This document shows, in pieces, positions 20,643 to 54,500 of a stretch of DNA of 64,000 bases. The number at the start of each line of letters is the position of its first letter. Position 1 is the stretch's first letter. Under the pieces are notes generated by a model that had not been told where the DNA came from, made no database searches, and saw nothing but the letters and a program-made list of their open reading frames with translations. This stretch comes from Candidatus Poribacteria bacterium (GTDB lineage Bacteria > Poribacteria > WGA-4E > WGA-3G), in the NCBI GenBank assembly GCA_965205015.1, contig OZ242029.1:224001-288000 (forward strand), read 5' to 3'. A program made the translations under genes and the position numbers.

Positions 20643-20717
<75 letters not shown>

Positions 20718-34739: not shown

Positions 34740-35135
34740 TTAATGGGTTAGCGCGATAATCGAGACAATGAGTGCGGCAACCGCACAGATCGCTACAACC
34801 CAATCCTTGAGAACCGAGAATCCCGCTTTCCGTCCTCACAATTCAGCGATACCTGTCTCAACGCCTCGGAGCCGCGTATCAATGTCATCCAATCGCTGCG
34901 TATGGCGCGCATCCATATCATCTAAACGCTGGGTGTGGCGCGCCTCCATTTCATTCAATCGCTGGGTGTGGCGCGCATCCATATCACCCAGCTGCTTTGT
35001 GTGGCGCGCATCCATATCACCCAGCTGCTTTGTGTGGCGCGCATCCATATCATCCAATCGCTTAGACAACTCATCTAATCGCTTAGACAACAGCTCATAC
35101 AACTCTTGAATCGTCATTTCTATATTTTCCCTCAT
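34740..35135 (-). pseudogene. Coiled-coil tail-anchored protein with an in-frame TGA at 34836-34838
   Basis: MRENIE...(DMDARHT repeats)...ETGIAEL*GRKAGFSVLKDWVVAICAVAALIVSIIALTH*. Confidence 0.7.
34888..35091. repeat. Coding tandem repeats: 5 x 33 bp followed by about 2 x 21 bp
   Basis: 33-bp unit ...TGGCGCGCATCCATATCA (11-aa hendecad), then (T/C)AATCGCTTAGACAAC twice. Confidence 0.9.
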
Positions 35136-35230
35136 TTTTGGTATCCCCTTGTGAAGTGCTAAAAAGCAGGTGCCCTGCCAAGACCTCGCGCCGATACGCT
35201 GAAACCTGACAAACACCATGATACCTTTTT

Positions 35231-36586
35231 TTATCCGTTTGTCAACGCTTTCTCCGCCTTCAGCCACTCAAGCGTCTGCGCAAACGCTGCGACTGTCGCC
35301 GTGACATCTTCCGCCGTGTGCGCCGCGGTCGTCATTCCACCATTACTGGCGAGATCAATCCCGTTGAGCAGTAGACCGCACCGGAGACGCATCAGCATGT
35401 CGGCGTCGCTACTCCCTTTCAATTTCCGATAATCCCATGCGTATGGATCGAAATCTGAAGTCCGCATCCCCTTTTCACCGTGTCCGACGAGCAGTTTAAG
35501 CCCTGAAAATTCACCGTAAACGACCCAATCCAGCCCATAGTCATCAATGACGTTGTTCAGTTCGGTGCGAAGACGTGCTGCGGTGTGATTCGCTTGTTCA
35601 TGCGGTTCGCCTGTCTTGATGATGTTGAGCATGGCAATGCCAGCAGCCGCGGAGAGGGGATTCGCATTAAAGGTGCCGGGATGCGGCATCTTTAAGCCGT
35701 CGCGTTCTGATTTCATGGAAATGAGTTCAAGCACCTCCGTTTTGCCTGCAAGCGCGCCACCGGGAAGCCCACCCGCCAAAATCTTCGCGAGCGTTGTCAT
35801 ATCCGGCGTGACGTTGTAATGCGCCTGCGCGCCACCGGGTGCGACCCGGAATCCCGTAATAACTTCATCGAAAATCAGCAGCACATCGTGCGCCGCTGTC
35901 AATTCACGCAGCTGCTTCAAAAATGTGCCGTTTGTAGGGACAATACCGAAGGATGCGCCTGTCGGTTCAAGGATGATACAGGCGATGTCTTTATCCGTTT
36001 TCAAGAGCGTTTCAACGGCATCAATGTCGTTCGGTGGACAGAGAAGCGTTGTATTACGCACCTCTTCTGGGATACCGGGGACGTTCATATCAAAAGGTGG
36101 GTATGCGCCTAAGATGACGCTGTCATGCCAACCGTGGAAATGCCCGGCAAATTTCAGCACCTTATTCTTACCGGTATAGGTGCGTGCAAGCCGGATCGCC
36201 ATCAGTGTCGCCTCTGTTCCGGAACTGACGAATCGGACGCGTTCCGCTGAGGGGACCAGTTGTGTGACGAGCGACCCCCATTCCATCTCCAACGGGTGGC
36301 ACGCGCCGTAGTGCGTTCCTCGATGCATCTGTGCTGTTACGGCTTCTACGACCTCCGGCGGATTATGTCCGAGGAGGAGGGCACCGTGTCCCGCCCAATA
36401 GTCAATAAATTGCTTGTCTTCGAGTCCCCATTTCTTCGAGCCATCGGCACGCGTGATATAAACCGGAAACGGCGACATATAGCGTCCATCATGCGTTACG
36501 CCGTCAGGAAATAGATGATTCGCGGCATCGGACATCTCTCGATCTTTTGCAAAAGTCTTTTGGTAGCGTTCTAAAATGGTGTGCAT
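35231..36586 (-). CDS. Class III PLP aminotransferase, glutamate-1-semialdehyde aminomutase-like
   Basis: SSGTEAT..AIRLAR, HFHGWHD, FDEVITGFR, LAKILAGGLP, GTFNANPL. Confidence 0.88.
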   Translation of the reverse strand: MHTILERYQKTFAKDREMSDAANHLFPDGVTHDGRYMSPFPVYITRADGSKKWGLEDKQFIDYWAGHGALLLGHNPPEVVEAVTAQMHRGTHYGACHPLEMEWGSLVTQLVPSAERVRFVSSGTEATLMAIRLARTYTGKNKVLKFAGHFHGWHDSVILGAYPPFDMNVPGIPEEVRNTTLLCPPNDIDAVETLLKTDKDIACIILEPTGASFGIVPTNGTFLKQLRELTAAHDVLLIFDEVITGFRVAPGGAQAHYNVTPDMTTLAKILAGGLPGGALAGKTEVLELISMKSERDGLKMPHPGTFNANPLSAAAGIAMLNIIKTGEPHEQANHTAARLRTELNNVIDDYGLDWVVYGEFSGLKLLVGHGEKGMRTSDFDPYAWDYRKLKGSSDADMLMRLRCGLLLNGIDLASNGGMTTAAHTAEDVTATVAAFAQTLEWLKAEKALTNG

Positions 36587-36689
36587 CTTTTTCTCCCCAC
36601 TTTTCTCGGTGTTTGTGAAAATTATATCATATTTCCATTTTATTTGCGAAACGAATTTTCAATGTGGCTCCGTAGCTCTGTTAAAATAT

Positions 36690-36718
36690 TTGACAAATTT
36701 CGCATCCGCTTCTATAAT
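36690..36718 (+). promoter_or_regulatory. Consensus sigma70 promoter about 410 nt upstream of the LRR gene
   Basis: Exact TTGACA-N17-TATAAT. Confidence 0.85.
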
Positions 36719-36768
36719 AGGATTTATACAATTTTTCCATACGCTAAAATCGACTGAAGGTGCCAAGA

Positions 36769-36936
36769 ATGCAGCACAATCGCACCGCTCTTAACATCGC
36801 CAAACAGATTCTACGGACACACCAGATAGACAGCGTGCCTGTCGCGCCGCGCGGTACCGTGTGCCTCTCAACCACGCGTGTTGCGAACACACTGTTAACA
36901 CCGCCGACCTGCCCCCCCCCACTTTACAAAAATTAA
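36769..36936 (+). CDS. Putative 55-aa leader peptide spanning a C9 tract
   Basis: MQHNRTALNIAKQILRTHQIDSVPVAPRGTVCLSTTRVANTLLTPPTCPPPLYKN*; GAAGGT upstream; C9 at 36912-36920. Confidence 0.5.
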   Translation: MQHNRTALNIAKQILRTHQIDSVPVAPRGTVCLSTTRVANTLLTPPTCPPPLYKN

Positions 36937-36992
36937 GCATTACACGATACAAGCCAACACCGACTTTTATGGTGTCATGCTGTCTTTTTCGC

Positions 36993-37043
36993 GCCCATGC
37001 GTGCTGTTGCTAAACGGTAGCACGTTATGGGCTATTTTTGTTG
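36993..37043 (+). terminator. Terminator-like hairpin in the 5' leader
   Basis: GCCCAT..CGTGCTGTTG-CTAAA-CGGTAGCACG..ATGGGC followed by TATTTTTGTTG. Confidence 0.55.
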
Positions 37044-37125
37044 CCGTCTCGATGATCTACCGAAAAACCTTCCCATTCAGCAAAGGGACCCCTAACCATA
37101 AAAACGCGAGAGGTATTTTCAAAAA

Positions 37126-40100
37126 ATGTTAAAATCTGTCTACACCTTTTCTGTCTGTTTCATTCTTTTTCTCACATTGCTCCATCCAGCAAACGCAGCC
37201 CCAACTGACCCTGTGAACATCTCCGACGCTGCCCTCCGGGCTGCCATCGAAACCGAACTCGGCAAGAATCCCGGAGACACAATCACCGAAGCGGATATGG
37301 AGCAACTGACGAATCTCAAGAAAAACAACCTTGACATTCGGGAGCTAACGGGTTTGGAGCATGCCATCAACCTCACTGAGCTGCAATTAATTCGCCCGCA
37401 GCCCCGAACTCAGGCAGAGATAGACGCACGCCCTCGTTGGGATCTCACGCCCCTTTCAGGCCTAACGAACTTGGAATGGCTGAACTTTGAAGGTGTTGTA
37501 ATTTTCGACATGAAACCCCTGGCGAATTTAACAAAACTTAAATTCTTATCACTTAACTCTACTTATGGCATCAGCGAGGTCCCCGACCTATCGAAACTCA
37601 CAGCGTTGGTCCACCTAAGACTTACCAGAAATCGCCTCACGAACATAGCAGGGGTCAGAGGTCTCACAAATTTGAGAGACCTAAGTCTTGCGGTAAATCC
37701 GAACCTCTCGGATATATCGCCCCTGACGAGTTTAAGCAATTTGGAAGTTTTGTTCCTTGATGGGACCGCCATCACCCGCGAATCTCTATCAGCCGTGCTA
37801 CCCTCTTTCTCAACAGAAATTGATCAACAGCAAATAGAAGAAGCATACCCTTCTCACAGCATTAAATCGGGGCAATTAAGTTTTGAGAATACCAACATCT
37901 CCGACCTCTCCGTGTTAGACCGCTTACCCAACGTGTTCTTGGAGAGGCTGCGTATGAAATACATGGGCACCGTATCTAGCGGGACACTCTTTTTCCATCT
38001 GACGGATCTCACCCCTTTGGTGGACCTCATGAACAAGGGAAAAGTCATAAATAGCAATACCAATATTTATTTGAGGTATAACCTCGGGCTCGACTATGAG
38101 TCCCTCTACGAAGACATACCCGCACTCTTAGCCGGTAGTGGAGACTTCCTATATACGGAACCTAACCCTATGCTTGAGATAGAACCACCCCCGCCCCCTA
38201 TGGTTGAGATAGACCTTCAGGAAAAGACAGAAGCATCCTACAGGGGGTATCCCAGAACACGCTACACGTTTAAGGTGCGTGCCGTTAATGAACATTCCGT
38301 CCTCTCTCCAGCATCGTTCTTGACACCACGCCTCATGCGAGATGGTGACGACAACCGGCAATTCGAGAAGGTGCCTGTCACCTTTACCGTTACCGCGCCT
38401 GATGGCAGCAGCGAGATAATGGATCCTGTCAAAACAGGACCCGATGGATTGGCATCCGTCACCATTACCCTTGGAAATGAGGGCGAAACGCATACCGTGA
38501 CAGCAGTCGTCCCAGAAAAGACGACATCCGTCGCTGAACTGTTACATTCCGAACTCAGCGTGCGTTTCACCGTCACAGCAGATGGGACAGTCGAACCGCC
38601 GCCGAGACCGCCACAACCGCCCTCTACTCCTAAACTGACGGTGACCTTTGAGGACTACCCCGAAGAGAAGCCGATCGATGAATTTACGCTCACGATCAAA
38701 TTCTCTGAACCCATCATCGGTTTCGAGACGGAGGACCTCACGGTAGAGACAGAACTCACCAGCGGGAAAGGGGACGCAACCGTGCTAGACTTGACCCCCG
38801 AAACACCAATACACCCCGATAGACCCGACCCTGACCCCATACAGACCTACACCGCAACCGTGGAACTTCCGTCCCGCGCAAGAGGCACCGTGACGCTCAT
38901 CGTCCGAGAAGATGCCGCAACCACCCCAGCAACTGCCCCTGTGGAGAAGAGAGGTCCCGCTTCAGACACCCCCTCCGACCCTATCGAGTTCGGACGCAGA
39001 CGTGTGATCGTCTGTCCACCATCTGTCGTGCCTATGGAGACAGTCATCTTCAACGAATTTCGAAACGCTGAAAACGACACACACGACTGGATAGAACTCA
39101 AGAACATCTCCGATGAAGACATGTCCCTCGCCGAATGGGAGATCAGTCTTGTCGTCCCGCACGCCATCAGTCCGGCGGCACCGCAACAGGAAATCTTCGC
39201 AATGGATCGGGATGTCGTCGCCTTTGGAGACTATACACTCCCCGCAGGGGGTATCCTGCTGATCGTCAATACCCACCCCAGCGAGACGGATCTGATACGC
39301 GGGCAGGACATCGAAAATCCCAACCGCAACCCCGATCTCCTCCCCCACTATCTCATCGCACCGGAGATGAAGTTGCCGAGTACCCCCTATCTGCTCATCC
39401 TCCGGAGTGTGCGCGATAAGAACGGTCAACACGAAGGCTTTGAAGACCTCGCAGGCGATTACCACAAAGACGATGTCAACTACGCTACCAACATCTGGCC
39501 CCTGCTCTGTACCCCTGTCTATACCGGCACAGAGGCACGGTTCACCGTAGGCGACATCTATCAGCGGGTCATGGTGCCAAAGTTTTCGTCGAGGACCCTG
39601 AACACCACGCCACAGCCGGAGAAACGCGGCTACCTTGAGGGTGCCTGGATGTTGAGCGACTCTCATAGTGGGTTAGGCTATGACCCCGAGGCACCCCCTG
39701 ACAAGAGTCTCGGCACGCCGGGGTATCCGCTGCCGGGACAACCGACTGAAAAGGGATGGGGAAACATCAGTTTTTCTGAGGTGATGTATGCGACGAACGA
39801 TAACGGAGGACTCTCGCAGTGGATAGAACTCTATAACAACACCTCTGAGATCGTGGACCTCACGGATTGGGAGCTCATGATTGAGGCACGCGACAGCAAA
39901 ACCGTCCGACGTTGGACATCGCTTCGGTTCAAACCGCTACACATCAGACCGAACGCAACCGTGCTACTGGTGGGGCGGAACGCCCGAACCTCAGGGAACA
40001 TCCCTGCCGATCGGATTTACGATCTCTACCGTCGCAACATTGCGGCGTTTCGGCGGCTCGGCGAGGGTGCGAACCGATTCCTCGGATGGGAGGGGTTTGC

Positions 40101-40743
40101 GCTGCGGTTGTTCTCCCCCGACGGCACTTTGGTGGATGTTGCGGGGAACCTCGATGGACGGCAAACGCACGATAAACCGAAGTGGGAGTTGCCCGACGGC
40201 TGGACGGAAACCGGGACCCGTACCTCGTTGATCCGGGGGTATGATGCGCGTGTGCCACGGTTAGGGACGCTGCCCGGCAGTTTCGTACGGGCGGCGGATA
40301 CAGCGTTGCTCAAGGGATATTCGTATTGGGGACTTCCGACAGATAATGGGACCCCGGGGTATCGGCGGGGGAGTCCCCTGCCTGTAACACTGTCGAGTGT
40401 GCGTGCGGATCGTGCCGAGGGCGGGGTCGTAGTGGACTGGACGACGCAATCGGAGATGGAGAACGCCGGGTTCTATGTGCTGCGAAGTCAGAACAGCAAA
40501 ACGGGATTCGTGAAAGTGAGCCCGACGCTGATTCCTGGAGCAGGCACGACTGCCGAACGGAGCACGTATACCTACCGAGATACCACGGCGCAACCGAATG
40601 TGCCGTATTATTATCGGCTCGAAGAGGTCTCGCTATCCGGGGAGCGTCGTGTTTTGGCGACCGTGCGGCTACGCGGGCATCTCTCCGCTGCGGGAAAGAC
40701 GCTTTGGAAGTGGGCGGATGTGAAATCCGAGATTTCCCCTTGA
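37126..40743 (+). CDS. Secreted internalin-like LRR / Ig-like / lamin-tail-domain surface protein
   Basis: Signal peptide; ISDAALRAAI cap; LRRs (LTPLSGLTNLEWL); Pro-rich linkers; two LTD-like motifs (IFNEF...DWIELKN, FSEVMY...QWIELYN); PVTLSS...WTTQSEMENAGF; KTLWKWADVK tail. Confidence 0.85.
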   Translation: MLKSVYTFSVCFILFLTLLHPANAAPTDPVNISDAALRAAIETELGKNPGDTITEADMEQLTNLKKNNLDIRELTGLEHAINLTELQLIRPQPRTQAEIDARPRWDLTPLSGLTNLEWLNFEGVVIFDMKPLANLTKLKFLSLNSTYGISEVPDLSKLTALVHLRLTRNRLTNIAGVRGLTNLRDLSLAVNPNLSDISPLTSLSNLEVLFLDGTAITRESLSAVLPSFSTEIDQQQIEEAYPSHSIKSGQLSFENTNISDLSVLDRLPNVFLERLRMKYMGTVSSGTLFFHLTDLTPLVDLMNKGKVINSNTNIYLRYNLGLDYESLYEDIPALLAGSGDFLYTEPNPMLEIEPPPPPMVEIDLQEKTEASYRGYPRTRYTFKVRAVNEHSVLSPASFLTPRLMRDGDDNRQFEKVPVTFTVTAPDGSSEIMDPVKTGPDGLASVTITLGNEGETHTVTAVVPEKTTSVAELLHSELSVRFTVTADGTVEPPPRPPQPPSTPKLTVTFEDYPEEKPIDEFTLTIKFSEPIIGFETEDLTVETELTSGKGDATVLDLTPETPIHPDRPDPDPIQTYTATVELPSRARGTVTLIVREDAATTPATAPVEKRGPASDTPSDPIEFGRRRVIVCPPSVVPMETVIFNEFRNAENDTHDWIELKNISDEDMSLAEWEISLVVPHAISPAAPQQEIFAMDRDVVAFGDYTLPAGGILLIVNTHPSETDLIRGQDIENPNRNPDLLPHYLIAPEMKLPSTPYLLILRSVRDKNGQHEGFEDLAGDYHKDDVNYATNIWPLLCTPVYTGTEARFTVGDIYQRVMVPKFSSRTLNTTPQPEKRGYLEGAWMLSDSHSGLGYDPEAPPDKSLGTPGYPLPGQPTEKGWGNISFSEVMYATNDNGGLSQWIELYNNTSEIVDLTDWELMIEARDSKTVRRWTSLRFKPLHIRPNATVLLVGRNARTSGNIPADRIYDLYRRNIAAFRRLGEGANRFLGWEGFALRLFSPDGTLVDVAGNLDGRQTHDKPKWELPDGWTETGTRTSLIRGYDARVPRLGTLPGSFVRAADTALLKGYSYWGLPTDNGTPGYRRGSPLPVTLSSVRADRAEGGVVVDWTTQSEMENAGFYVLRSQNSKTGFVKVSPTLIPGAGTTAERSTYTYRDTTAQPNVPYYYRLEEVSLSGERRVLATVRLRGHLSAAGKTLWKWADVKSEISP

Positions 40744-40768
40744 TAATCTCTCCAAGATACGGTATAAT
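40740..40768 (+). promoter_or_regulatory. sigma70-type promoter
   Basis: TTGATA-N17-TATAAT. Confidence 0.65.
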
Positions 40769-40787
40769 TAGTGCTACACTATTCCCC

Positions 40788-40827
40788 AAGGAGCGTTTTA
40801 TGAAACAGATAGATGGCGGGATTACAA
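40788..40827 (+). repeat. Diverged duplicate of the argJ RBS and first 9 codons
   Basis: AAGGAGCGTTTTATGAAACAGATAGATGGCGGGATTACA vs AAGGAGCCGTTCATGAAACAGATAGAAGGCGGAATCACC at 41782. Confidence 0.85.
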
Positions 40828-40902
40828 CGCACTTATTGTTACCGACCCGCCAACGACTGTGCTTGAAAACAGCGACGATGCCGCGGATAGGTATGGAGAG
40901 GT

Positions 40903-41751
40903 TTGATGTCTACTGACAATTCAAAGGCAGATCGCGATTTTTTAGACCCTGTTTTCAAAGAGGTCATGACGTTTAACTTCGCTCAATTGGCTCTGCCTGT
41001 CGAAACGCAAGTGGAAATTAGTCGCCTTCCTCGGACGATGGATGCTCTTATTGTTCTTGAACAGCCCCTTGAACGTGAGAAAGTTCGTGAGCAAACGGTT
41101 TTCAATTACTTCCGGGTCTACAATCAGATTGAATTCAAAGGGAAAAACGATCCGCTCACACGGGACGAGTATAATCTCATTCGAGGGCGAAGCTATCTTT
41201 ATCTTGGGGAAAAGAAGATCTCCGCGTCTTTAATGACAGTTACAATCATTTCCGCCCGGCAACCGAGGAACGTCCTCTATCATTCCACTCTCGACGTGAA
41301 ATGGAAATCGGAAAGCGCAGGACATTACAAAAGTGTAGACCTCTTTCCAGTTCACCTCTTTGTGTGCAACGAGCTTGAACTCACCCCAAAGAATTACCCG
41401 CTCCTTCTGTTTGCAGCATCAAAGGAGAAGTTTCGTCAATTTGTTGAGCAAATTGTAGGCGAGGACAATATAACTTACATCTACTATGCTTCGCGTGTTG
41501 AACCAACAGTCACAAAAGAGGTTTTAAAAATGGCAAGAAAACAGAATTTATACGAAAAACAACTTCAGCGAATCGTTGATAGCATGGGGGCGGATCTGCT
41601 ACAAAAAATGACCCCGGAAGAACGTATGCATGGATTGACGGTTTCTGAAAGGTTAGCAGGACTCAGCCCAGAAGATTTACGCGCTTTGGACCCGAAAGTG
41701 AAAGCAGCACTCTTGGAGATGTTGAATCAACCAGACGAAACGCAAGTTTAA
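40903..41751 (+). CDS. Hypothetical protein, possibly PD-(D/E)xK / Rpn-like
   Basis: PRTMDALIV...NQIEFKG spacing; C-terminal PEERMHGL..SERLAGLSPE repeats. Confidence 0.6.
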   Translation: MMSTDNSKADRDFLDPVFKEVMTFNFAQLALPVETQVEISRLPRTMDALIVLEQPLEREKVREQTVFNYFRVYNQIEFKGKNDPLTRDEYNLIRGRSYLYLGEKKISASLMTVTIISARQPRNVLYHSTLDVKWKSESAGHYKSVDLFPVHLFVCNELELTPKNYPLLLFAASKEKFRQFVEQIVGEDNITYIYYASRVEPTVTKEVLKMARKQNLYEKQLQRIVDSMGADLLQKMTPEERMHGLTVSERLAGLSPEDLRALDPKVKAALLEMLNQPDETQV

Positions 41752-41793
41752 AACGAAACTTATCTACCCCCATTTTTTTACAAGGAGCCGTTC

Positions 41794-42999
41794 ATGAAAC
41801 AGATAGAAGGCGGAATCACCGCAGTCGCCGGTATCCGCGCAGCGGGTCTCCATGCAGGCATTAAAGCCGCAGATGCCAAGGACGTGGCACTCATCGTTAC
41901 CGACACCCCAGCGACCGCCGCCGGGGTTTTCACAAAAAACAGCGTCACCGCAGCGCCCGTGATTGTCTGCCGCGAGCATCTCAGCGACGGACGCGCACAA
42001 GCCGTTATCGTCAATAGCGGGAACGCCAACGCCTGCACCGGCGAGGTCGGCATGGCGAACGCACGACGGATGGCTGCCGCAACCGCCGAACAGATCGGTA
42101 TAGACGCGAACCTCGTTCTCGTCTCTTCTACAGGTGTTATCGGACAGCAATTACCGATGGACACAATCGAAAATGGAATCCAAGCCGCCGCAAGCGCGCT
42201 GAGTCGTGAAGGGGGTGCCGATGCCGCCGAAGCGATTATGACAACGGATACACACCCGAAATCTGTCGCCGTAGAGATCGAAATCGGCGATACACCCGTG
42301 AGGATCGGTGGGATCGCGAAAGGTTCGGGGATGATCGCACCCAATATGGCGACGATGCTCTCCTATCTGACAACAGATGCCCGAATCAACGCCGAAGTGC
42401 TTCAAGCCGCCCTCAATCGTGTCGTAGACGACACCTATAATCTCTTAACCGTTGACACCGATCGCAGCACAAACGATACGGTGCTGATCCTCGCCACTGG
42501 ACATGCCGATAACGCCGAGATTGTTACAGCAGATGGGAAAGATTACGAAGCGTTTTGTGAAGGACTTCAGTTCGTCTGCACCGAATTGGTGAAGATGCTC
42601 GCCCGCGACGGCGAAGGTGCGACGAAACTCGTTGAGGTGATCGTCAAACACGCCAAGAATCGGGACGACGCTGAAAAAGCGGCGCGTGCCGTTGCGGAAT
42701 CACCGCTCGTCAAGACCGCCGTTTTCGCTAACGATGCAAATTGGGGACGGATTATGATGGCGATCGGGAAATCGGGGGCGGAATTTGACCCGTATCAGGT
42801 GGATGTCTGGCTCGCCGATTATCGACTCGTCAAAAACGGAATGGATGCTGGCTATGATGAAGACAAGGCGACCGCGCTGTTCGCACAAGACCCCGTGCGT
42901 ATCACGATTGACCTCCGTGCCGGTGACACAGAAATAACGATGTGGACATGTGATTATTCCTATGACTATATCCGAATCAACGCCGATTACCGGACATAA
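41794..42999 (+). CDS. argJ: Bifunctional ornithine/glutamate N-acetyltransferase
   Basis: NSGNANACTG, STGVIG, IMTTDT, KGSGMIAPNMATML, STND, DGEGATK, DANWGR, INADYRT. Confidence 0.97.
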   Translation: MKQIEGGITAVAGIRAAGLHAGIKAADAKDVALIVTDTPATAAGVFTKNSVTAAPVIVCREHLSDGRAQAVIVNSGNANACTGEVGMANARRMAAATAEQIGIDANLVLVSSTGVIGQQLPMDTIENGIQAAASALSREGGADAAEAIMTTDTHPKSVAVEIEIGDTPVRIGGIAKGSGMIAPNMATMLSYLTTDARINAEVLQAALNRVVDDTYNLLTVDTDRSTNDTVLILATGHADNAEIVTADGKDYEAFCEGLQFVCTELVKMLARDGEGATKLVEVIVKHAKNRDDAEKAARAVAESPLVKTAVFANDANWGRIMMAIGKSGAEFDPYQVDVWLADYRLVKNGMDAGYDEDKATALFAQDPVRITIDLRAGDTEITMWTCDYSYDYIRINADYRT

Positions 43000-43577: not shown

Positions 43578-43652
43578 GCGGGAGTAGCTCAGTGGTAGAG
43601 CTCCACCTTGCCAAGGTGGAGGTCGCGAGTTCAAATCTCGTCTCCCGCTCCA
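43578..43652 (+). tRNA. tRNA-Gly(GCC)
   Basis: GCGGGAG stem, CCACC-TTGCCAA-GGTGG, encoded CCA. Confidence 0.96.
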
Positions 43653-43660
43653 TCTTCTAT

Positions 43661-43735
43661 GGTGGCGTAGCCAAGTGGTAAGGCCAGAGTCTGCAAAACT
43701 CTTATTCGTCGGTTCGATTCCGACCGCCACCTCCA
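43661..43735 (+). tRNA. tRNA-Cys(GCA)
   Basis: GGTGGCG stem, AGAGT-CTGCAAA-ACTCT, GGTTCGATTCC, encoded CCA. Confidence 0.96.
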
Positions 43736-43749
43736 TTCTTTTTTTCGAC

Positions 43750-43823
43750 GGGCGGTTAGCTCAGGTGGCTAGAGCGTTTGCTTGACATGCAAGAGGTCAC
43801 TGGTTCAAGTCCAGTACCGCCCA
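43750..43823 (+). tRNA. tRNA-Val(GAC)
   Basis: GGGCGGT stem, TTGC-TTGACAT-GCAA, GGTTCAAGTCC. Confidence 0.95.
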
Positions 43824-45964: not shown

Positions 45965-46020
45965 AAAGTCTCTGCGGTTTTTTGCAAAACTTTTGTGGTT
46001 TCTTACAAAGTTTGTGCTGG
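45965..46020. repeat. 21-bp-period direct repeat array A
   Basis: AAAGTCTCTGCGGTTTTTTGC / AAAACTTTTGTGGTTTCTTAC / AAAGTTTGTGCTGG. Confidence 0.75.
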
Positions 46021-46171
46021 CATCGCTATTTTTTGCCCAAGATAAGTATATCATACATCATAACCGATTTTAAGCAAGTTTCAATCGCTTTTGTAACATG
46101 CGTAAGTTCTATATAACTTAACACGCACCACGAGAAAAAAGTTTACAAGACCATCCATCCGATTTTCCCGG

Positions 46172-46227
46172 CAAGACTTGTGCTGTTTCTTACAAGACCT
46201 ATGCTGTTTCTTACAAAACTTGTGCTG
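46172..46227. repeat. 21-bp-period direct repeat array B
   Basis: CAAGACTTGTGCTGTTTCTTA / CAAGACCTATGCTGTTTCTTA / CAAAACTTGTGCTG. Confidence 0.85.
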
Positions 46228-46267
46228 AAATCGCCATTTTCGCGCCGAATCCTTGGCAACATTGGCT

Positions 46268-46913: not shown

Positions 46914-47044
46914 TATAGTAGATCCCATAATTACTTACACACTCACATCGTTATGTGAACTTGTAAATGTGTGCCTCACGGAGGCACAGGAGACCAACGG
47001 TTTCCTATGCTACAAGTGTAAACTTATTTTTACAACCTACTATA
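46914..47044. mobile_element. MITE with TATAGTA... terminal inverted repeats
   Basis: Left TATAGTAGATCCCATAATTACTTACAC; right end reverse-complements to TATAGTAGGTTGTAAAAATAAGTTTACAC; internal segment also present at about 54702-54730. Confidence 0.7.
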
Positions 47045-47170: not shown

Positions 47171-49657
47171 TTGAAAAATATAAATATATCTCAATTGATA
47201 ATTGGAATTGCATTTCTCACACTTGTGTTTTCAAGCGTGGGGTGGAGCCAATCCGCCGACATTGTCCTGATCATTGACAGTTCATCGAGTATGGGAGGTA
47301 ACGATCCAACTGACCTCCGGAAAGACGCAGCGGAGCTGCTCATCGGTTTAGCCGCATCCGATACGCAATCCGAGGTCCAAATCGGGATTGTTGATTTTGA
47401 TGGTTGGGCAGTAACGCTTGCCCCACTTACCGTGGTTAATCCTGCTGGACAGGTTCAATTAGAGGACGCGGTCGATCAAATTAACTCTGATGGCAGCACC
47501 AATATCGCTGGTGGGCTCCATCAAGGATTTGAGGTATTATCTGCGGGTAGTGATCCCGACGTAAGAAAGGCGGCAGTCCTGCTCACCGATGGCGAAGATA
47601 ATTCGTATACGGACGACATCGTCTCAAACTACGACGCGAAGGCCTGGTCAATTTACACGATCGGCTTAGGTTCCGGTGTTAACCAAGCGAAATTACAGAA
47701 CATCGCGAGTGCGACACCAGAGGGCGAATATTATCCCGTAGATTTAAGCAAGATTCATGAAGTCTACAACAGTATTCTTGCCAAGGTTACCCGGAGGACC
47801 ATATTCGCAAGTCATGCAGGTTATATCAATCAAGATCAGGAGCGCACGCAAAATGTTTTGGTTGATAGGGACGTTAGACAGCTCAATTTCTCGGCGAATT
47901 GGATAGGGAGCACCATTGAGATGGCACTCGTTGATCCCAGAGGCTTTGAAATAACGCCAGATATCGCTGCCACCCAAGGCATCGGTTATCAAGTTGCCCC
48001 GACTTTTGTTATCTATACTGTCGATAACCCGATGGCGGGGGAATGGCGGATGAAGATAAAAGGGACAGATATCCCACCGGAAGGCGAACCGTACAGCCTC
48101 GTCGTTACGGGTGACTCGGATTTTGTTACGAATTTCCTTGCCTTCGAAGCGAGTTATTCTGTCGGGGACACCGTGCGCATCGGCATCCGCATCCACGAAA
48201 AAACCGGAGACATCTCACATCCTGTGTTAGGTGCTACCACCTCGGCCGCCGTTGTCCGTCCAGATGGCCGCATTGAGACGCTAACGCTGTTTGATGACGG
48301 TCTCCACGACGATAGCACAGCCGGTGATGGCGTTTACGCAAATAATTACACCAATGTTGATCTGTTGGGAAGCTACCTTATTCGGGCTTCTGTCCAAAAT
48401 GGGTTTTCCCGTAAAATTGAGAAGCAGATTGTCGTAGGCAATATTGATAACGTCTTCGTCGACGGCTCCACTTTGACCCCCGCAGCGGGTGCAACCCTCA
48501 GCCAGGTGCCAAGGCGTATCAGTGCGGTGATTTCGGGACCTGCGGGTAGTATTGACAGGGACACAATTGTGCTGAGAGTTGACGGTGCCATTGTCCAACA
48601 CGCCTACAATGCCGTGAATCAACTCGTTTCATTTGAACCGGCACAGTTATCCCGAGGCACGCACACAGTCTCTTTAAGTGTTAATAACACTATTGAGACA
48701 AACTGGTCCTTTACGACTGAGTCGGGGGTTGTATCGCGCTTCGCCATTTTGATGGTTCTTCTTGATAACGAGCTCAACATGCTCGCAGAACGCAACATGC
48801 TTGCTGTCCCACTCATCCCTGAAGTGCCTTACACAGGGAGCCCCCTCAGTGAAATGTTAGCGGCGACCCTTGTCATCAGATTTGATACAGTCAAACAAGC
48901 ATACACCGGCTACGTTGCACCGGGGGCAACTGACAGTTTTGCTGTTGCGGATGGAAAGACCTATAGGGTCAATATCCCCGCGCCCAGAATGCATGCGTTC
49001 ACACGGACAGCACGGACGAATCCGCAAGTGGCTGCCGCCCCCGGTCTCAGGACTCAAGCGGGGACCAGGATATTTGTTGTGAGCTGCGATCTGCGAGGCA
49101 TCGACGCTGATGCTCGCTACGCTCTGACGGTGAAAAATCTGCGGACCGGCGCAGTCGCTATTTCTGGGGACGCTGAGACTCCCAAAGCAGTATGGGCAAA
49201 TGTGAACCGCAACAGTGCCGTCCAAATCGGGGACATACTGGAGGTGGTATTACGCGACGCGTATGGAAATATCGTCGCCGGTCCACGCCTGCAAACGGTG
49301 TCCGCTACAGATATTCACAACGCGTATCTGCGGGTTCAGTTGACGGGCAGAGATATACAACCGAAAGATACAGTCCTGGCGCAGAACTACCCGAACCCTT
49401 TTAACCCTGAAACGTGGATTCCGTATCAACTGAGCGATCCCACCGATGTTTCAATTCAGATTTATGATAACTCAGGTCGCTTGGTCCGGACGTTGGCAGT
49501 TGGGTTGAAGGCAGCAGGTATCTATAGGACGCGTTCGCGAGCGGCGTATTGGGATGGTAAGAATGAAAGCGGTGAGTGTGTGGCGAGCGGCACCTATTTC
49601 TATACACTCCGGACCCCCGAATTCTCGGCTACGCGCCGGATGATCATTTTGAAGTAG
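47171..49657 (+). CDS. Secreted VWA-domain protein with FlgD/T9SS-CTD-like C-terminus
   Basis: MIDAS DSSSSM, STNI, LLTDG; LFDDGLHDD..AGDGVY; [16 protein letters not shown]...AAYWDGKN...RRMIILK. Confidence 0.88.
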   Translation: MKNINISQLIIGIAFLTLVFSSVGWSQSADIVLIIDSSSSMGGNDPTDLRKDAAELLIGLAASDTQSEVQIGIVDFDGWAVTLAPLTVVNPAGQVQLEDAVDQINSDGSTNIAGGLHQGFEVLSAGSDPDVRKAAVLLTDGEDNSYTDDIVSNYDAKAWSIYTIGLGSGVNQAKLQNIASATPEGEYYPVDLSKIHEVYNSILAKVTRRTIFASHAGYINQDQERTQNVLVDRDVRQLNFSANWIGSTIEMALVDPRGFEITPDIAATQGIGYQVAPTFVIYTVDNPMAGEWRMKIKGTDIPPEGEPYSLVVTGDSDFVTNFLAFEASYSVGDTVRIGIRIHEKTGDISHPVLGATTSAAVVRPDGRIETLTLFDDGLHDDSTAGDGVYANNYTNVDLLGSYLIRASVQNGFSRKIEKQIVVGNIDNVFVDGSTLTPAAGATLSQVPRRISAVISGPAGSIDRDTIVLRVDGAIVQHAYNAVNQLVSFEPAQLSRGTHTVSLSVNNTIETNWSFTTESGVVSRFAILMVLLDNELNMLAERNMLAVPLIPEVPYTGSPLSEMLAATLVIRFDTVKQAYTGYVAPGATDSFAVADGKTYRVNIPAPRMHAFTRTARTNPQVAAAPGLRTQAGTRIFVVSCDLRGIDADARYALTVKNLRTGAVAISGDAETPKAVWANVNRNSAVQIGDILEVVLRDAYGNIVAGPRLQTVSATDIHNAYLRVQLTGRDIQPKDTVLAQNYPNPFNPETWIPYQLSDPTDVSIQIYDNSGRLVRTLAVGLKAAGIYRTRSRAAYWDGKNESGECVASGTYFYTLRTPEFSATRRMIILK

Positions 49658-49732: not shown

Positions 49733-51520
49733 GTGAAAAACAGTGCTACGTTCATAGCAGGTTTCGGCGTGCTAACGCTCCTGCTGCTGATCCCAAATAC
49801 AGGAAATACAAAGCCAGATGATGTCCGTTATTCGGTCCTCACGAATCAGGGGCATACCATTTTAAGCGCTGCTTTTAACCCTCGCGACATTCACATGCTT
49901 GCGACTGGGGGCTCTGATGGCACAATCCGGGTATGGAATACAAGCACGCGCGCACTCCTGTACATCATTTATTACGATAAGGATTTGATCCTCAGTCTCG
50001 CATTTAGCCCTGATGGTAGCGTACTGGCGAGCGGAAGTGCCGATGGCAACGTGCGATTATGGAATGTCGGCACAGGGAAACTCCAGCATAAGCTCAGTGA
50101 GCACACGGACCTTGTAACGAGTCTCGCTTTTAGTGCTGATGGCAGCGTACTCGCCAGTGGCAGTGAAGATGGGACGATCCGGCTGTGGGATCCAGACACA
50201 GGACAGCAGCAGAACGCCCTCACGGGTTATGATGTCCCCGTCCTCAGTCTCGCTTTCAGTCCTATTGGAAAGGTACTTGCAACCGGGCGAGCCGACACCC
50301 GAGTCCGGGTGTGGAACTTGGAGACGGGCAGACTCCAACACACGCTTGAGGGCCATAAGGATCTTGTCCTCAGTCTTGCATTTGGTCCTAATAACGGCAT
50401 GCTCGCCAGTGGCGGGGCTGATGGCAGGGTGTTCCTATGGAAAACAAGCCCAGGGGTGCTCCTGAAAACCTTCACCGCACATACGAATTGGGTCAACACC
50501 GTTGCGTTCCATGGAACAACGCTCGCCAGTGGCAGTTTCGATAAAACGATCCGCTTGTGGAACGTAGACACGAGGACCCTCCAGCAGACGCTCACGGCGC
50601 ATACCCAAAGCGTCGAAAGTCTTGCCTTCAATACGAACGGCAGTCTCCTGGCGAGCGGGAGTGCCGATGGCAAAGTGTTGCTATGGGAACTCACAGCCTC
50701 ACAAACAGCCTCACAAATCCTGGCAGATGTTAATGGAGACGGTGTCGTCAATCGGTTGGATTTGGAGGCAGTCAACACACGCTTAGGCAGGAGTGAGCGG
50801 TCTCCTGCGGATGTCAACACCGATGGTATCGTCAATATTACCGATCTCGTTTTGGTTACGAATGCAATCGAGGCTACAGCCGCTGAGCGGAAGGCCCTTG
50901 TGAGCGGGAGGACAGATGTCAATAACGATAACGTTGTAGATATGTCGGATTTGGAGGCGATTGACGAGCGTTTGGGGATGACAGGGCAGTCTCCTGCGGA
51001 TGTCAACATTGATGGTGTCGTCAATATTGTTGATCTCGTCTTGGTCGCGAATGCCATCAATCTTGCAACGGTAGCCGCCCCCGCTTTCCACAATCGGGTC
51101 ACAGCATTGATTACAGCCGAACGGATCCAAGGGTGGTTGACCGAGGCCCGGTTATCAGAGGAGCCCTCTCTTGCCTACCAGAGAGGCGTGCTGGTGCTAG
51201 AACAACTCTTGGCGATACTGACGCCCGAAACGACAGTGCTACTGCCGAATTATCCGAATCCGTTTAACCCAGAGACGTGGATCCCATATCGGTTGGCAGC
51301 GGCTACGGATGTAGGGGTGCGTATCTACGGTGCGAACGGCACACTGGTAAGAACCTTGGAAATGGGGCAGCAGCCAGCGGGTCTCTATGAAAGCCGTGCG
51401 CGAGCCGCGTATTGGGATGGCAAAAACGAACTTGGGGAACCCGTAGCAAGTGGCCTCTATTTTTATACACTCACTGCCGGGGAATTCACTGCGACACGGA
51501 AGATGCTGATACGGAAATAG
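49733..51520 (+). CDS. Secreted WD40 + dockerin-like + CTD protein
   Basis: About 7 WD repeats (SLAFSPDG..LASGS.DG..RLW); four DVNxDxxVx..DL Ca-binding repeats; [11 protein letters not shown] tail. Confidence 0.9.
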   Translation: MKNSATFIAGFGVLTLLLLIPNTGNTKPDDVRYSVLTNQGHTILSAAFNPRDIHMLATGGSDGTIRVWNTSTRALLYIIYYDKDLILSLAFSPDGSVLASGSADGNVRLWNVGTGKLQHKLSEHTDLVTSLAFSADGSVLASGSEDGTIRLWDPDTGQQQNALTGYDVPVLSLAFSPIGKVLATGRADTRVRVWNLETGRLQHTLEGHKDLVLSLAFGPNNGMLASGGADGRVFLWKTSPGVLLKTFTAHTNWVNTVAFHGTTLASGSFDKTIRLWNVDTRTLQQTLTAHTQSVESLAFNTNGSLLASGSADGKVLLWELTASQTASQILADVNGDGVVNRLDLEAVNTRLGRSERSPADVNTDGIVNITDLVLVTNAIEATAAERKALVSGRTDVNNDNVVDMSDLEAIDERLGMTGQSPADVNIDGVVNIVDLVLVANAINLATVAAPAFHNRVTALITAERIQGWLTEARLSEEPSLAYQRGVLVLEQLLAILTPETTVLLPNYPNPFNPETWIPYRLAAATDVGVRIYGANGTLVRTLEMGQQPAGLYESRARAAYWDGKNELGEPVASGLYFYTLTAGEFTATRKMLIRK

Positions 51521-51588: not shown

Positions 51589-54500
51589 ATGAAAAACAGG
51601 ATCATATTTCCACTATTGCGTATAGTGTTGGTCTCGCTACTTTTTTCAGCCACTGCTTTCTCAGAGGATACAGTTGTGCGTGTCGCGTCCCGTCTCTTGG
51701 CGAGTGGTGCGGATCCCTCCGTAGTAGATATTGTTATTGAGAATGGACAAAACATTGCGGGATACCAGGTGATGCTTCAGTTTGACAGTGACTTTCTTGA
51801 ATATAAGAAGATCGAACACGGTGCCTATTTGCCAAAGGACGCATTTCGGGGAGAACCGCAAATTATACCTGATATAGATCCTACGGATGATTCACTTCAG
51901 GCGATACTTTTTGCGGCGGTTTCTTTGAGCAGTTCGGGCAAGGGGGACGGTATTCTTGCTACACTCACGTTTACGCCCAAAATAAAACGGGGGTCTTCCC
52001 TCGTCTTACTTGACAAGACGGTTTTGTCCAATAAGAAGGGGGAGGTATTGCATCCAATTCTTAAACACGCAAAAACATATCCCAAGATTGCTTCTGATTT
52101 AGCGATTGGATCGGTTCAGGCGATCCCCAGAAACACCACGGCGGTGCGGCATGTCTACAGCAAAGGAGATGAGTTTCAACTCCGTACGACTGTCAGGAAC
52201 AGGGGCAATGTGGCATCCGCCGCGGCACAACTCATATTTTATGGTCCCGCTACCACAAAGACGAATAAAGGCGGTGCGTTGGGAAGCGTCAATATAGCAC
52301 CGCTGGATCCGAATGCCGCAGTCGAGATAACGCTACCTAACTTTGTTACTGTCTCCGATAATTCCGGCACCTACTATTACACTGCATGTATAGGGAGCGG
52401 TAATTGCTCTGAACCCCTCAAAATTGAGGTAGGTGCCCCGGACCTAAGGGTTCCGGACTTAGTCGTTGAATCCACTACAGTATCTCGACCCAACGATAAT
52501 GTGAGACAGGACCCCATGACCGTGTCGGGTGTATCTACGGATTTTTCCTTGATCCCTCCAAGGACTGAGACAGTCCAATGTGTTGCTTATAGTCCGGACG
52601 GAACCCTCCTCGCAACTGCTGGCAATGACAACAAAATCCACTTGTGGGACTCAAGTACCGGTGTGTTTCGTCGCAATCTTGATTTGGATGGAGATGTCTA
52701 CAGCATTGCCTTTAGTCCAGATGGCACCTGGTTTGCGAGCGGAACTAGAAGAGGAGCGCATCAACTCCTCGTGTGGGAGACAGAAACCTGGGTGGTAAAA
52801 GCCAGATTCGGACCGGGGAACGCCCGGGGTGTCGGTTTTAGTCATGATAGCCAATTTCTTGCGTGTGGGACAGATAGCACGGACGGGGTGTATGTGTATA
52901 AATATTTTAACGATTCGCAAGCGTGGAGAATCTTCGACGAAGAATGGGAACATCCTCATAATGTGACGAGTGTGGCTTGGCATCCTAAACGGCATGTGCT
53001 TGCCAGCGGGTGTGATGACACAAGAGTGCGAGTGTGGGACTTATCCGGGCAATCCGAAGAACTTGAAGGGCATAGAAACAGAGTTCACTCCGTAGCTTTT
53101 AGCAGCAATGGTGACTTCATCGCAAGTGGAGATTCCACCGGGCAAGTAATCTTGTGGAAGAATATAGGCGGGAATTGGGGGGGTCAGGAACTTAAGGAAT
53201 ATAACAATACGGTTCACAGTGTTGTTTTTCATCCGGGTGGAGATTTGCTGTTAAACGGTGCGAATGATGATACGATTGATATGTGGAATGTGCACACGGG
53301 AGAGCATCTCACCAATATCGACCTCTCAGAAGTCAATATCAACGCAGACAAACATGCATACATCCGTAGCATCGCTTTTAATTCTCAAGGCAACGCCATA
53401 GCGATTGGCATTCTTAATGGCAAGGTCCGACAAGTCACCGTAAACCCACATACAGGGGTCGGCTTGAAACTTCCACCAAATCTCATATCAGATGTGGCAC
53501 ACAGTGAAAAATACACCTACTTTGTTCTGAATCCTGTTTTTCCACTGGTGACAGTGACGGGGATACCAAATGCAAATGAACTACAAGAATTACTATACGA
53601 GGGCAAGAATAGGAACAGCCTCGGAAAGTGCATCATTACACTTGATACTAACAAATATGATTATTTTGCGTTCCCCTTAGAACCTGGTACAGATGAAGAA
53701 GTATATGATGCTTTGAAAAGTGCATTTAATATTATTCTTTCGGGAGTTGGCTTCGTAAAATCGGTCAAAATCATAAAACCGGGGGTCGAACAGAGCAGAA
53801 AGATAGTTAAAGGCATTCAGAAACTGGGGGAAGTTTTGAGTGCCCTAACTATTTTCGTGGACTCCGTAAATATTCTGGATACGGTGGCTGATGTTGTAGA
53901 GAACAGTGAGGAGGAGCAGGATTTCGCAATGACAATAGAACCGATACAACCCGAGGGACCCGGTTGGGGAGAAATATTTCTTTACAGTTTATTAGATTTT
54001 GTGGATCTTGCGGACGCGGATACGCGATTCGTTGATTATCCTGTCCTTTTTCGCATCTCAGGCGGCTTACACAGCTTACCAAGTATAGGCATTAAGGTAA
54101 CGCAAAACTACAGCATCGACGCTTCAGATTATGCGGTGACATATGAAGGGACGTGGGACCTGGAAAATAGCACCAGTGCGGCACCAAGCGCACAACCAAT
54201 GTCACTTGCGGATTATCCGCCATTTCAACAGTTATCACCGGAAATGCAGGAATATCTGCTCCGGTATTTCGATGAGTCTAAAAACACTGAGGCTACAACT
54301 GCCGAGGCATGGCAGGTTCCAGAGGCGACATCTCTATTAGCCAACTACCCGAACCCGTTCAACCCGGAGACGTGGATTCCGTATCAACTCTCTGAACCCG
54401 CGGATGTAACGTTGACCATCTACGACCTCAACGGGCATGTCGTGCGGGATTTAGATGTAGGGCATCAACGCGCAGGGATGTATCAGAGTCGGGCGCGGGC

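Follow-up and report, generated by a model that had tools for sequence, protein, structure and literature searches.

How might the expression of a gene for a large secreted protein be set when the gene is preceded by a strong promoter, a short open reading frame (ORF) that runs into nine consecutive cytosines, and a terminator-like hairpin? This question is raised by positions 36690–37132 of the window, by which is meant the whole 64,000-nucleotide stretch of Poribacteria DNA that was analysed. A preliminary description of the same DNA had proposed that the length of the cytosine tract selects among three reading frames ending at different places relative to the hairpin, so that the gene would be switched through attenuation rather than through its own coding sequence. 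Here, the parts of this leader are examined, the leader is compared with those of other Poribacteria loci and with database relatives of its ORF, and the possible explanations are weighed.

The leader upstream of the 1205-residue protein gene

The features of the leader and of the gene that follows it are listed below.

36690..36718 (+), sigma-70-type promoter, with the −35 element TTGACA at 36690–36695, a 17-nt spacer and the −10 element TATAAT at 36713–36718
36756..36762 (+), Shine–Dalgarno-like GAAGGTG, 6 nt 5' of the start of the upstream ORF
36769..36936 (+), upstream (leader) ORF of 55 aa as assembled, with ATG at 36769 and TAA at 36934–36936
36912..36920 (+), C9 homopolymer, which is proposed to select the frame and is unpaired in the predicted minimum-energy fold
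36921..37132 (+), long frame obtained with C8 (equivalently C11), 70 stop-free codons through the terminator
36993..37043 (+), intrinsic-terminator-like hairpin and U-rich tail, paired over 36993–37032 with the loop at 37010–37014 and the tail at 37033–37043
37011..37013 (+), TAA inside the loop of the hairpin, where the C10-type frame ends
37108..37113 (+), GAGAGG, a Shine–Dalgarno-like site that is weak and distant, 12 nt 5' of the main ATG
37126..40743 (+), gene for a secreted protein of 1205 aa that starts with a signal-peptide-like segment, has LRR repeats and matches the Lamin-tail domain twice

The promoter, leader ORF, tract, hairpin and three distinct frame ends were all recovered where the preliminary description had placed them. 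The promoter agrees with the consensus at 12 of 12 positions and is the top-scoring site between 35000 and 42000; transcription would be expected to start near 36725. No other promoter-like site was found on the plus strand over 36751–37126, a span that includes the gap between the terminator and the gene. The leader ORF comprises 47 codons, the proline run at the tract, four further codons and the TAA. Its codon usage is atypical, with a score of +1.95 compared with 12.8 (s.d. 4.9) for real genes and −22 (s.d. 10.6) for off-frames, and leaves its coding status ambiguous; no Pfam family matched it. The C9 tract is the sole run of at least eight C or G residues within the 64 kb window, and runs of at least nine are expected by chance 0.30–0.35 times per 64 kb. 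Taken alone, the tract is not significant, and the case against chance therefore rests on its recurrence at other loci and its conservation in relatives.

The hairpin folds with 17 pairs at −23.5 kcal/mol (z = −3.0), a value equalled by one of 200 shuffles; a simple terminator scan missed both this hairpin and that of a further locus, L033, and folding confirmed both. When the whole leader was folded the result was no better than for its shuffles (z = −1.0), and thus no global structure is claimed. Searching the whole window against Rfam 15 at the gathering score returned four tRNAs only, and a permissive search of 36500–37250 gave a best E value of 0.2, far under gathering, and hence no family. 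No inverted repeats were found around the leader (36.6–37.2 kb), while three pairs of at least 25 nt lie elsewhere in the window.

Past the tract, the C9 frame, which is that of the assembly, meets its TAA 14 nt beyond the run and 56 nt 5' of the hairpin, the C10 frame ends within the hairpin loop, and the C8 frame continues to a TAA at 37130–37132 that overlaps the start region of the 1205-aa gene. From the tract to the ATG, the three frames contain 2, 4 and 0 stops, and a frame that is free of stops over this span arises in 9% of dinucleotide shuffles of the window leader (P = 0.0925).

Further leaders and relatives of the leader ORF

The succession of promoter, ORF, C8 or C9 tract, terminator(s) and gene recurs at ten further loci in two other Poribacteria genomes, namely L033 and nine paralogs from one genome (L013–L021). 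The promoters of these ten match the consensus or depart from it by one mismatch, the ORF before the tract spans 45–81 codons as scripted (65 codons in L033 if it is started at the ATG carrying a ribosome-binding site), the tract is an uninterrupted C8 or C9, and one to three terminator-like hairpins follow it. Folding gave −20.5 kcal/mol for L033 and three hairpins with U tails for L016; the third hairpin is present in all nine paralogs, in which the start codon and a Shine–Dalgarno-like site are also aligned and kept. The Rfam search gave no match in the leaders of L014, L016 and L033. At all ten loci the gene 3' of the leader encodes a Lamin-tail domain, which makes 11 of 11 with the window. 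The preliminary description had spoken of control of an LRR surface protein and had suggested a search for the same leader before other LRR genes and a test of whether the stop positions are conserved; the layout does recur, but LRR is not the common denominator, the shared feature of the genes being the Lamin-tail domain, and the stop in the hairpin loop is not conserved.

Over the stretch from the ORF start to the tract, the 11 loci together contain no stops in the ORF frame, compared with 39 in one of the alternative frames and 30 in the other. Beyond the tract, exactly one frame passes the last terminator at every one of the 11 loci; it reaches the main start codon in eight, and it is the assembled frame in only two, differing from it in nine. 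Both of the other frames stop 5–26 nt past the tract in eight of the ten further loci, and this, together with the loss of the loop stop in two database relatives of the window ORF (P0122 and P0126), leaves the 'intermediate' state that had been assigned to C10 without support. In other parts, the earlier attenuation reading gains support from the ten additional loci and from the single long frame found at each. In five of the eight loci in which the long frame reaches the gene, its stop shares bases with the start codon or directly adjoins it, against a control rate of 29/114 (binomial P of about 0.03 by our own arithmetic). In L015, L018 and L019 the long frame ends 56–114 nt short of the gene, and in L014, L017 and L021 it enters the gene by 89–121 nt in another frame. 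An in-frame fusion between the leader ORF and the downstream gene was considered and rejected, as the long frames are out of register with the gene where they end at or within it, and signal-peptide-like sequences open the main genes.

The probability that shuffles leave one frame without stops between the tract and the ATG is 0.039 for L033 and 0.0095–0.1265 for the paralogs, values that are modest for each locus (0.01–0.13) and, for the nine paralogs, not independent of one another. If the three families are treated as independent, the product is about 3e-4 by our own arithmetic, for a test that was picked after the pattern had been seen. The run stands as C on the coding strand at 11 of 11 loci and is uninterrupted in the nine diverged paralogs, among which 73% of the surrounding ORF columns are variable. 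By codon position, the variable columns of the paralog family number 37, 35 and 43 of 53, 52 and 52, respectively, and within this family neither the ORF nor the long frame has an excess of third-position substitutions, which would fit a frame that needs to be open and a peptide that is of no matter.

In the 559 kb of loci there are 12 C or G runs of at least eight, compared with about 13 by our own estimate for independent, identically distributed bases; ten of the 12 lie 210–560 nt upstream of the starts of Lamin-tail-domain genes and have conserved flanks. The C runs within 800 nt upstream of some 28 other Lamin-tail-domain loci do not exceed five; long leaders are present there and the device of ORF plus C run is absent, which indicates that the device is lineage-restricted. 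When the window leader was compared with 51 loci, the best E values were 0.07 for its DNA (blastn) and 0.01 for its three translated frames (tblastn), the window was not hit by an nhmmer profile built from the leaders of the nine paralogs, and hhalign gave a probability of 0.1% between the leader-peptide families of the window and of L013–L021/L033. The last value leaves unsupported a resemblance seen by eye between the two peptide families, which consisted of a few residues at equal spacing. As the two leader families have no detectable homology, the layout recurs despite sequence divergence.

The window leader ORF has eight database relatives, which align with it from M1 to P50 without indels. 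The proline run is kept in all eight and all three post-run frames are represented, with tract lengths deduced from the proline runs of predicted proteins and not from DNA; these relatives are gene predictions, among which copies with a broken frame cannot show up. With the window ORF counted, the tails after the run are 3–4 aa long in four of nine sequences and 44–96 aa long in the remaining five. P0127 and P0122 are identical at 48 of 48 head residues and P0124 and P0129 at 44 of 48, and in each pair the post-run frame differs. The translated tails of P0122 and P0126 align to frame 3 of the window over 36912–37043 (70% and 66%, respectively), indicating that the DNA is conserved through the hairpin; both read through the position of the TAA at 37011–37013. 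No precomputed Pfam domains are recorded for the eight relatives. The 1205-aa protein itself has 703 database relatives, and P0123 is the only relative of the ORF that lies on a contig of the same size (194,766) as that of a large-protein relative (P0065), a weak indication of linkage between the two.

For a second family of leader ORFs there are 71 relatives, 70 of which were examined and 69 classified. The proline run is kept in 69 of the 70, and the lengths of the tails are bimodal: 30 are of 5 aa or fewer, one is of 14 aa, 38 are of 69–234 aa and none falls at 15–68 aa. There are 22 close pairs with differing post-run frames, and none of the 71 relatives has a precomputed Pfam domain. In both families the run always encodes 2–4 prolines. 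The long frame was also considered as a real protein; this was rejected on the lack of third-position bias, of Pfam domains and of conservation between the relatives of the window ORF.

A proposed tract-length switch and its alternatives

A tract-length-dependent, translation-coupled transcription attenuator appears to be the best explanation of these sequences, and we lean towards it with restrained confidence. The strong promoter would give rise to a leader RNA on which ribosomes would start at the short ORF and, some 47 codons on, come to the poly-C stretch. As this is read as proline in every frame, its length decides only which frame follows. With C9, translation would end 14 nt past the run, and with C10 it would end in the hairpin loop; in either case the terminator RNA would be free to fold, the polymerase would halt near 37043 and the gene would be silent or weakly expressed. 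A C8 (or C11) tract would let the ribosome trail the polymerase through the terminator over a further 70 codons, so that the hairpin could not form, and translation would end on the main start codon; the gene would then be transcribed and translation could restart there. Slipped-strand mispairing would alter the length of the run and provide a heritable and reversible on/off switch, and in genomes with many copies each copy of the gene would be switched independently. Homopolymers become hypermutable at a length of about 7–8 or more, a threshold that the C8 and C9 tracts reach.

What the sequences show is the set of parts and the arrangement of the frames, that this layout recurs, that the run is conserved and that the frames of close relatives differ as assembled. 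We infer that the leader ORF is translated, that ribosomes reading through the hairpin suppress termination and that the length of the run varies within populations. An extension to a lineage-wide contingency system, in which paralogous large secreted Lamin-tail-domain/LRR proteins of Poribacteria would each be switched independently by their own leader poly-C run, which would decide whether ribosomes pass one to three tandem terminators and arrive at the start codon, is more tentative and falls somewhat short of probable.

The same architecture could operate without any heritable change if RNA polymerase slippage or ribosomal frameshifting gave a fixed, low level of read-through in every cell. 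Runs of 8–9 identical bases are known sites of RNA polymerase slippage, the frame geometry is equally compatible with this account, and the presence of the run as C on the coding strand at every locus hints at a role at the level of RNA or translation. However, the frame after the run differs at the genomic level between assemblies of relatives that are nearly identical, which a pure RNA-level mechanism neither needs nor predicts, and we regard slippage as an unlikely substitute for a change in tract length. Slippage and heritable change are not mutually exclusive. The frame differences on which this argument turns may be true differences in run length or homopolymer errors of long-read assemblies, in which homopolymers are known to be miscounted. 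Were such errors joined with chance, the run would be an ordinary homopolymer, the frame differences artefactual and the open frame a product of composition, and in favour of this stand the 0.3 runs of at least nine expected per 64 kb and the number of runs in the 559 kb of loci, which is close to its estimate. It is very improbable in view of the placement of ten of the 12 runs upstream of Lamin-tail-domain starts between conserved flanks, and of the unbroken run in paralogs that have otherwise diverged; the bimodal tails and the dinucleotide-shuffle controls also speak against composition alone, and C7 and G7 runs inside genes of the window leave those ORFs intact.

Two further readings would make the length of the run incidental or separate the leader from the gene altogether. 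In a leader that senses proline or EF-P, a stall at Pro-Pro-Pro would control the access of Rho or the formation of the terminator. The encoding of 2–4 prolines throughout agrees with this, as does the composition of the window leader, which between the ATG and the hairpin is rich in C (34%) and poor in G (18.5%) and in this resembles Rho loading sites, Rho being described as binding cytosine-rich sites (PMC7446863). Such a sensor leaves unexplained, however, why one frame is open for 200–530 nt through the terminators and why stops lie directly past the run in the others, and in the window the stall site lies 73 nt 5' of the hairpin, too far for direct masking; we consider it quite improbable. 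No greater likelihood is given to an independent small gene, encoding either the 55-aa protein or a small RNA of about 320 nt, with the large gene driven by its own unrecognised promoter. The unit from promoter to terminator is indeed self-contained and is conserved in relatives through the terminator, and its head aligns without indels in eight relatives. Against this, no Pfam family was found for the window ORF or for the 8 and 71 relatives and no Rfam family for the leader, constraint at the amino-acid level is absent in the paralog family, no promoter-like site lies between the terminator and the gene, and the unit precedes Lamin-tail-domain genes in all 11 cases, with the stop-free long frame left unexplained.

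Comparison with known switches and attenuators

The proposed attenuator shares elements with several known systems. In Escherichia coli pyrBI, attenuation is coupled to translation of an upstream frame towards or through the terminator. In E. coli rph–pyrE, pyrE expression falls when a frameshift carries the upstream stop away from the attenuator, an effect that deletions returning the stop are thought to relieve, as described in PMC2784333. As in these operons, the position at which the ribosome stops relative to the hairpin would set downstream read-through in the window; there, however, nucleotide supply is the signal and the frameshift is a laboratory accident, whereas here a conserved, putatively hypermutable C run ending a dedicated leader ORF would pick the frame.

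The likeness to the poly-G/C contingency loci of Neisseria, Haemophilus, Campylobacter and Helicobacter lies in a homopolymer of 8–9 C associated with surface-protein genes, in the conservation of a run with inferred lengths that appear to differ between close relatives, and in a multi-copy family with one tract per copy, as in the opa genes of Neisseria. To our knowledge, the known tracts sit either inside the regulated gene, where they act as translational on/off switches, or in or near the promoter, where they affect transcription initiation through spacing, whereas the Poribacteria tract closes a separate leader ORF on its 3' side and lies upstream of terminators. For Campylobacter, phase variation by G/C tracts has been described (PMC8355987; 10.1101/2022.11.09.515450).

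Phase variation past initiation, via premature termination in the leader, would be a property shared with the cwpV and flgB switches of Clostridioides difficile. For cwpV, an intrinsic terminator reportedly forms in one orientation, a finding attributed to Emerson in 2009, and the flgB switch is described as involving Rho-mediated premature termination in the leader (PMC7446863). Both are invertible DNA segments that are flipped by recombinases and flanked by inverted repeats, none of which flank the window leader, and neither is known to involve translation of a leader ORF. Post-transcriptional repeats in 5' UTRs are described for the heptamers of H. influenzae hmw and for the G-repeat of H. 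pylori tlpB, a small-RNA target (PMC12721329). Like these, the Poribacteria run lies between promoter and gene; unlike the proposed frame selector, they act via RNA structure, RNase III processing or small-RNA pairing. In the literature searched, no description was found of repeat-driven phase variation acting via translation-coupled attenuation.

Leader-peptide attenuation serves as a metabolic sensor. If the proposal is true, a hypermutable run that chooses the frame of a leader ORF would join this form of control with phase variation in a compact and modular device of promoter, ORF, run and terminator. Poribacteria include sponge symbionts, and a role in contact with the host has been suggested for secreted eukaryote-like proteins of this kind. 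An uncultured symbiont would then vary its surface stochastically, with Poribacteria toggling the proteins of this large family individually, and such switching would bear on the persistence of the symbiont in a host that feeds on bacteria.

Leader anatomy in the window

The arrangement given in the preliminary description, namely a promoter, a leader ORF, a C9 run, a hairpin, a gene and three stop positions, was found exactly as described, with the following features.

35231–36586, divergently transcribed: class-III aminotransferase gene, the upstream neighbour of the leader
36690–36695 and 36713–36718, + strand: promoter, TTGACA, 17-nt spacer and TATAAT, the sole 12/12 match in 35000–42000
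36769 (ATG) to 36934–36936 (TAA), + strand: leader ORF of 55 codons, with GAAGGTG preceding the ATG
36912–36920, + strand: C9 run inside the leader ORF
36993–37032, + strand: hairpin of 17 pairs (−23.5 kcal/mol, z −3.0), followed by a U-rich stretch up to 37043
37126 (start), + strand: gene for the 1205-aa protein

The C9 run is the only C/G run of at least 8 within the 64-kb window, and about 0.3 runs of at least 9 are expected per 64 kb. After the run, the C9 frame stops at 36934, the C10 frame at 37011 in the hairpin loop and the C8 frame at 37130, overlapping the main start. Because the upstream aminotransferase gene is transcribed divergently, the leader is not the tail of another operon. 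A stop-free frame from the run to the ATG was obtained in 9% of shuffles of the window leader, the leader as a whole folds no better than shuffles, and it has no match to any Rfam family. The window by itself is weak evidence.

LRR and Lamin-tail domain (LTD) matches were found in the large protein, whose N-terminus is signal-peptide-like. Of 8000 candidates scored, 703 are relatives of it; those with names come from Candidatus Poribacteria, and paralogs share its 5.65-Mb contig. Directly after the stop of the large gene lies a second copy, at 85% identity, of the argJ (41794) ribosome-binding site and first codons (40787–40825 and 41781–41819); between the copies is a 282-aa ORF (40903–41751) without a Pfam match, an arrangement that looks like an insertion with target duplication. 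A minus-strand ORF of 143 aa (34836–35267) with a weak apolipoprotein-like match contains five head-to-tail copies at 33-nt spacing, an 11-residue period (34873–35095). A 33-nt sequence present in two copies at 97% identity (46983–47015 and 54698–54730), upstream of the + strand genes at 47171 and 54769, could be a regulatory or leader motif common to both. The intergenic DNA at 45973–46240, before the ORF at 46418, holds two 60-nt direct repeats 208 nt apart, with TTACAAA-like words repeated in each. One conserved module of some 270 nt forms the C-terminal end of three neighbouring large genes (49385–49657, 51248–51520 and 54343–54615), and WD40-like repeat genes lie in the same region (49994–50686 and 59303–60024). 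The window also holds a three-tRNA cluster (43578–43823, + strand) and one further tRNA gene (20643–20717, − strand).

Relatives of the leader and recurrence of the layout

Searched exhaustively, a set of 1.84 billion representative proteins yielded four relatives of the 55-aa ORF, and a word-indexed search with their alignment returned eight, all of which align from M1 to the proline run without indels and keep two to four prolines at the same position. A loose link to an LTD gene was seen for a single relative, P0123, whose contig has the same length (194,766) as that of P0065, a relative of the large protein. Among the window ORF and these relatives all three post-run frames occur, and the tails (the residues translated after the proline run) are of 3–4 residues in 4/9 and of 44–96 residues in 5/9. 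The relatives P0127 and P0122 are identical at 48/48 head residues, yet their post-run frames differ, as do those of P0124 and P0129 (44/48). By tblastn, the relatives' long tails correspond to the window's other two frames, translated from the same DNA through the hairpin and the U tail (identity to window frame 3 over 36912–37043 of 70% for P0122 and 66% for P0126); the DNA downstream of the run is therefore, as judged from these translations, conserved as nucleotides and not as a single protein. The intermediate C10 state put forward in the preliminary description has no counterpart in P0122 and P0126, in which the hairpin-loop stop is absent.

A search of genome contigs with the large protein gave 51 loci (559 kb), among which no resemblance to the window leader sequence was found. 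These loci contain 12 C/G runs of at least 8, ten of which precede an LTD gene start by 210–560 nt: nine in paralogous loci of one genome (L013–L021) and one in another genome (L033). All ten loci have a TTGACA-N17 promoter with a consensus −10 element or one mismatch, followed by a leader ORF with a ribosome-binding site and then an uninterrupted C8 or C9, preceded by 45–81 codons as scripted (65 in L033 if its start is the ATG with a ribosome-binding site). L033 has a single terminator-like hairpin with a U tail (−20.5 kcal/mol); the paralogs have as many as three, of which the last is present in 9/9. The layout recurs before ten further genes. LTD is common to all of the regulated proteins, and LRR matches were found in the window's protein only. 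Window-type and paralog-type leaders have no detectable homology. The device is, on the upstream regions compared, lineage-restricted, because in about 28 other LTD loci the C runs within 800 nt upstream do not exceed 5; some run-less loci carry long leaders of a different kind.

Other elements were seen in these leaders. In L013–L021 a block of about 90 nt ending in the third terminator, some 60–150 nt upstream of the gene starts (for example L016 2455–2535), is almost invariant between strongly varying flanks; it contains several G4/C4 segments with possible alternative pairings, has no Rfam match and may itself be a structured RNA element. A GC-rich palindromic REP-like repeat of about 28 nt has many copies in the intergenic DNA of that genome (L007 4200–4700; the upstream ends of L013–L021), with about eight in the L007 leader alone. 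Three run-less LTD loci (L036 2650–2670, L037 2680–2700 and L041 1225–1245) share the motif TCCCTGAATC with AT-rich flanks about 60–120 nt before the start codon, which may be a different conserved leader element. In L030 (2988–2999) the LTD gene begins with ATG and then an A9 run, which could be another slippery tract, inside the coding region.

Reading frames, mechanism and rival explanations

Summed over the 11 loci, the stops between the ORF start and the run number 0 in the ORF frame versus 39 and 30 in the other two, a count that is partly circular as the ORF was selected for openness. Although 73% of ORF columns vary among the paralogs, these retain the aligned start codon and its ribosome-binding site. 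Exactly one frame (the long frame) is open past the last terminator in 11/11 loci, and both other frames stop within 5–26 nt of the run in 8/11; in the window they stop 14 and 91 nt after the run, and in L018 and L019 just one of them stops early. In 8/11 loci the long frame extends as far as the main start codon, with the gene starts of L013, L017 and L018 shifted by eye to the Met opening a signal-peptide-like sequence. In five of these eight (the window, L033, L013, L016 and L020) the long-frame stop overlaps the start codon or lies right next to it, in the forms ATGA, TAATG and TGA-ATG; a stop at that position was found in 29/114 gene-frame combinations in the window (binomial P of about 0.03). 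The long frame extends 89–121 nt into the gene in L014, L017 and L021, and ends 56–114 nt ahead of it in L015, L018 and L019. Shuffle probabilities for a stop-free frame from the run to the ATG are modest singly (window 0.0925, L033 0.039, paralogs 0.0095–0.1265), and multiply to about 3e-4 on the assumption of three independent families, in a test chosen post hoc with the pattern already seen. As assembled, seven loci including the window are in a short-stop frame, two run through (L014 and L015) and two stop between terminators (L018 and L019).

For the paralog-type leader ORF the database contains 71 relatives (48–275 aa), none with a Pfam domain; three come from the genome of L013–L021 and hence are not independent of those loci. 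We examined 70 (P0200 matches the tail only and was left out) and classified 69, P0197 being missed by the pattern and of short form by eye. The 69 tails are bimodal, with 30 of at most 5 aa, one of 14 aa, 38 of 69–234 aa and none of 15–68 aa, and 22 pairs with at least 37/40 identical head-end residues differ in state. In sequence free of constraint, tail lengths should fall off geometrically; the empty interval and the well-filled class of long tails indicate that a single frame is kept open.

The best-supported reading is a leader that selects a frame. The run encodes proline in any frame, so that its sole effect would be the choice of the frame downstream. A ribosome in a short frame would come off well ahead of the terminators, in the window 56 nt short of the hairpin, after which the hairpins would fold and transcription would end; in the long frame it would stay behind the polymerase through the terminators and arrive at the main start codon. 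The run is conserved yet varies in length, from which we infer that switching would be heritable, through slipped-strand mispairing.

Chance combined with homopolymer assembly error is a rival account, and such error may explain the differences in run length, but it leaves unexplained the placement of the run, its integrity in diverged paralogs and the open frame. Polymerase or ribosome slippage would instead give a fixed read-through fraction. The leader might also be a sensor of poly-proline or EF-P stalling, perhaps acting together with Rho, for which the composition of the window leader (34% C and 18.5% G) speaks. Another alternative is an independent small gene or small RNA upstream of the large gene. 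Counted by codon position, the paralog ORF has 37, 35 and 43 variable columns of 53, 52 and 52, and the paralog long frame 66, 64 and 55 of 109, 107 and 107; neither has a third-position excess. The absence of this excess argues against a conserved small protein, as does the codon-usage score of the window ORF, +1.95 versus 12.8 (s.d. 4.9) for real gene segments and −22 (s.d. 10.6) for off-frames. This pattern fits frames that would need to be translated while their products do not matter.

Relation to known regulatory systems

In its mode of working, the frame-selecting leader resembles translation-coupled attenuation, of which pyrBI and rph–pyrE are related cases. In the accepted account of E. 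coli rph–pyrE, as given in PMC2784333, the position of the upstream stop relative to the attenuator sets downstream expression. In appearance, the leader device resembles a repeat-tract contingency locus; the usual loci of this kind have the tract in the gene or at the promoter, and the device fits neither class. It is not an invertible switch of the cwpV/flgB type, as outlined in PMC7446863, because no inverted repeats flank the leader. Nor is it a 5′-UTR repeat of the kind described in PMC12721329, which works by way of RNA processing or small RNAs. The full-text literature searched, which takes in few subscription journals, yielded no description of a terminator gated by a leader-ORF repeat tract. 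We rate the leader device as a new variation on known kinds of regulation.
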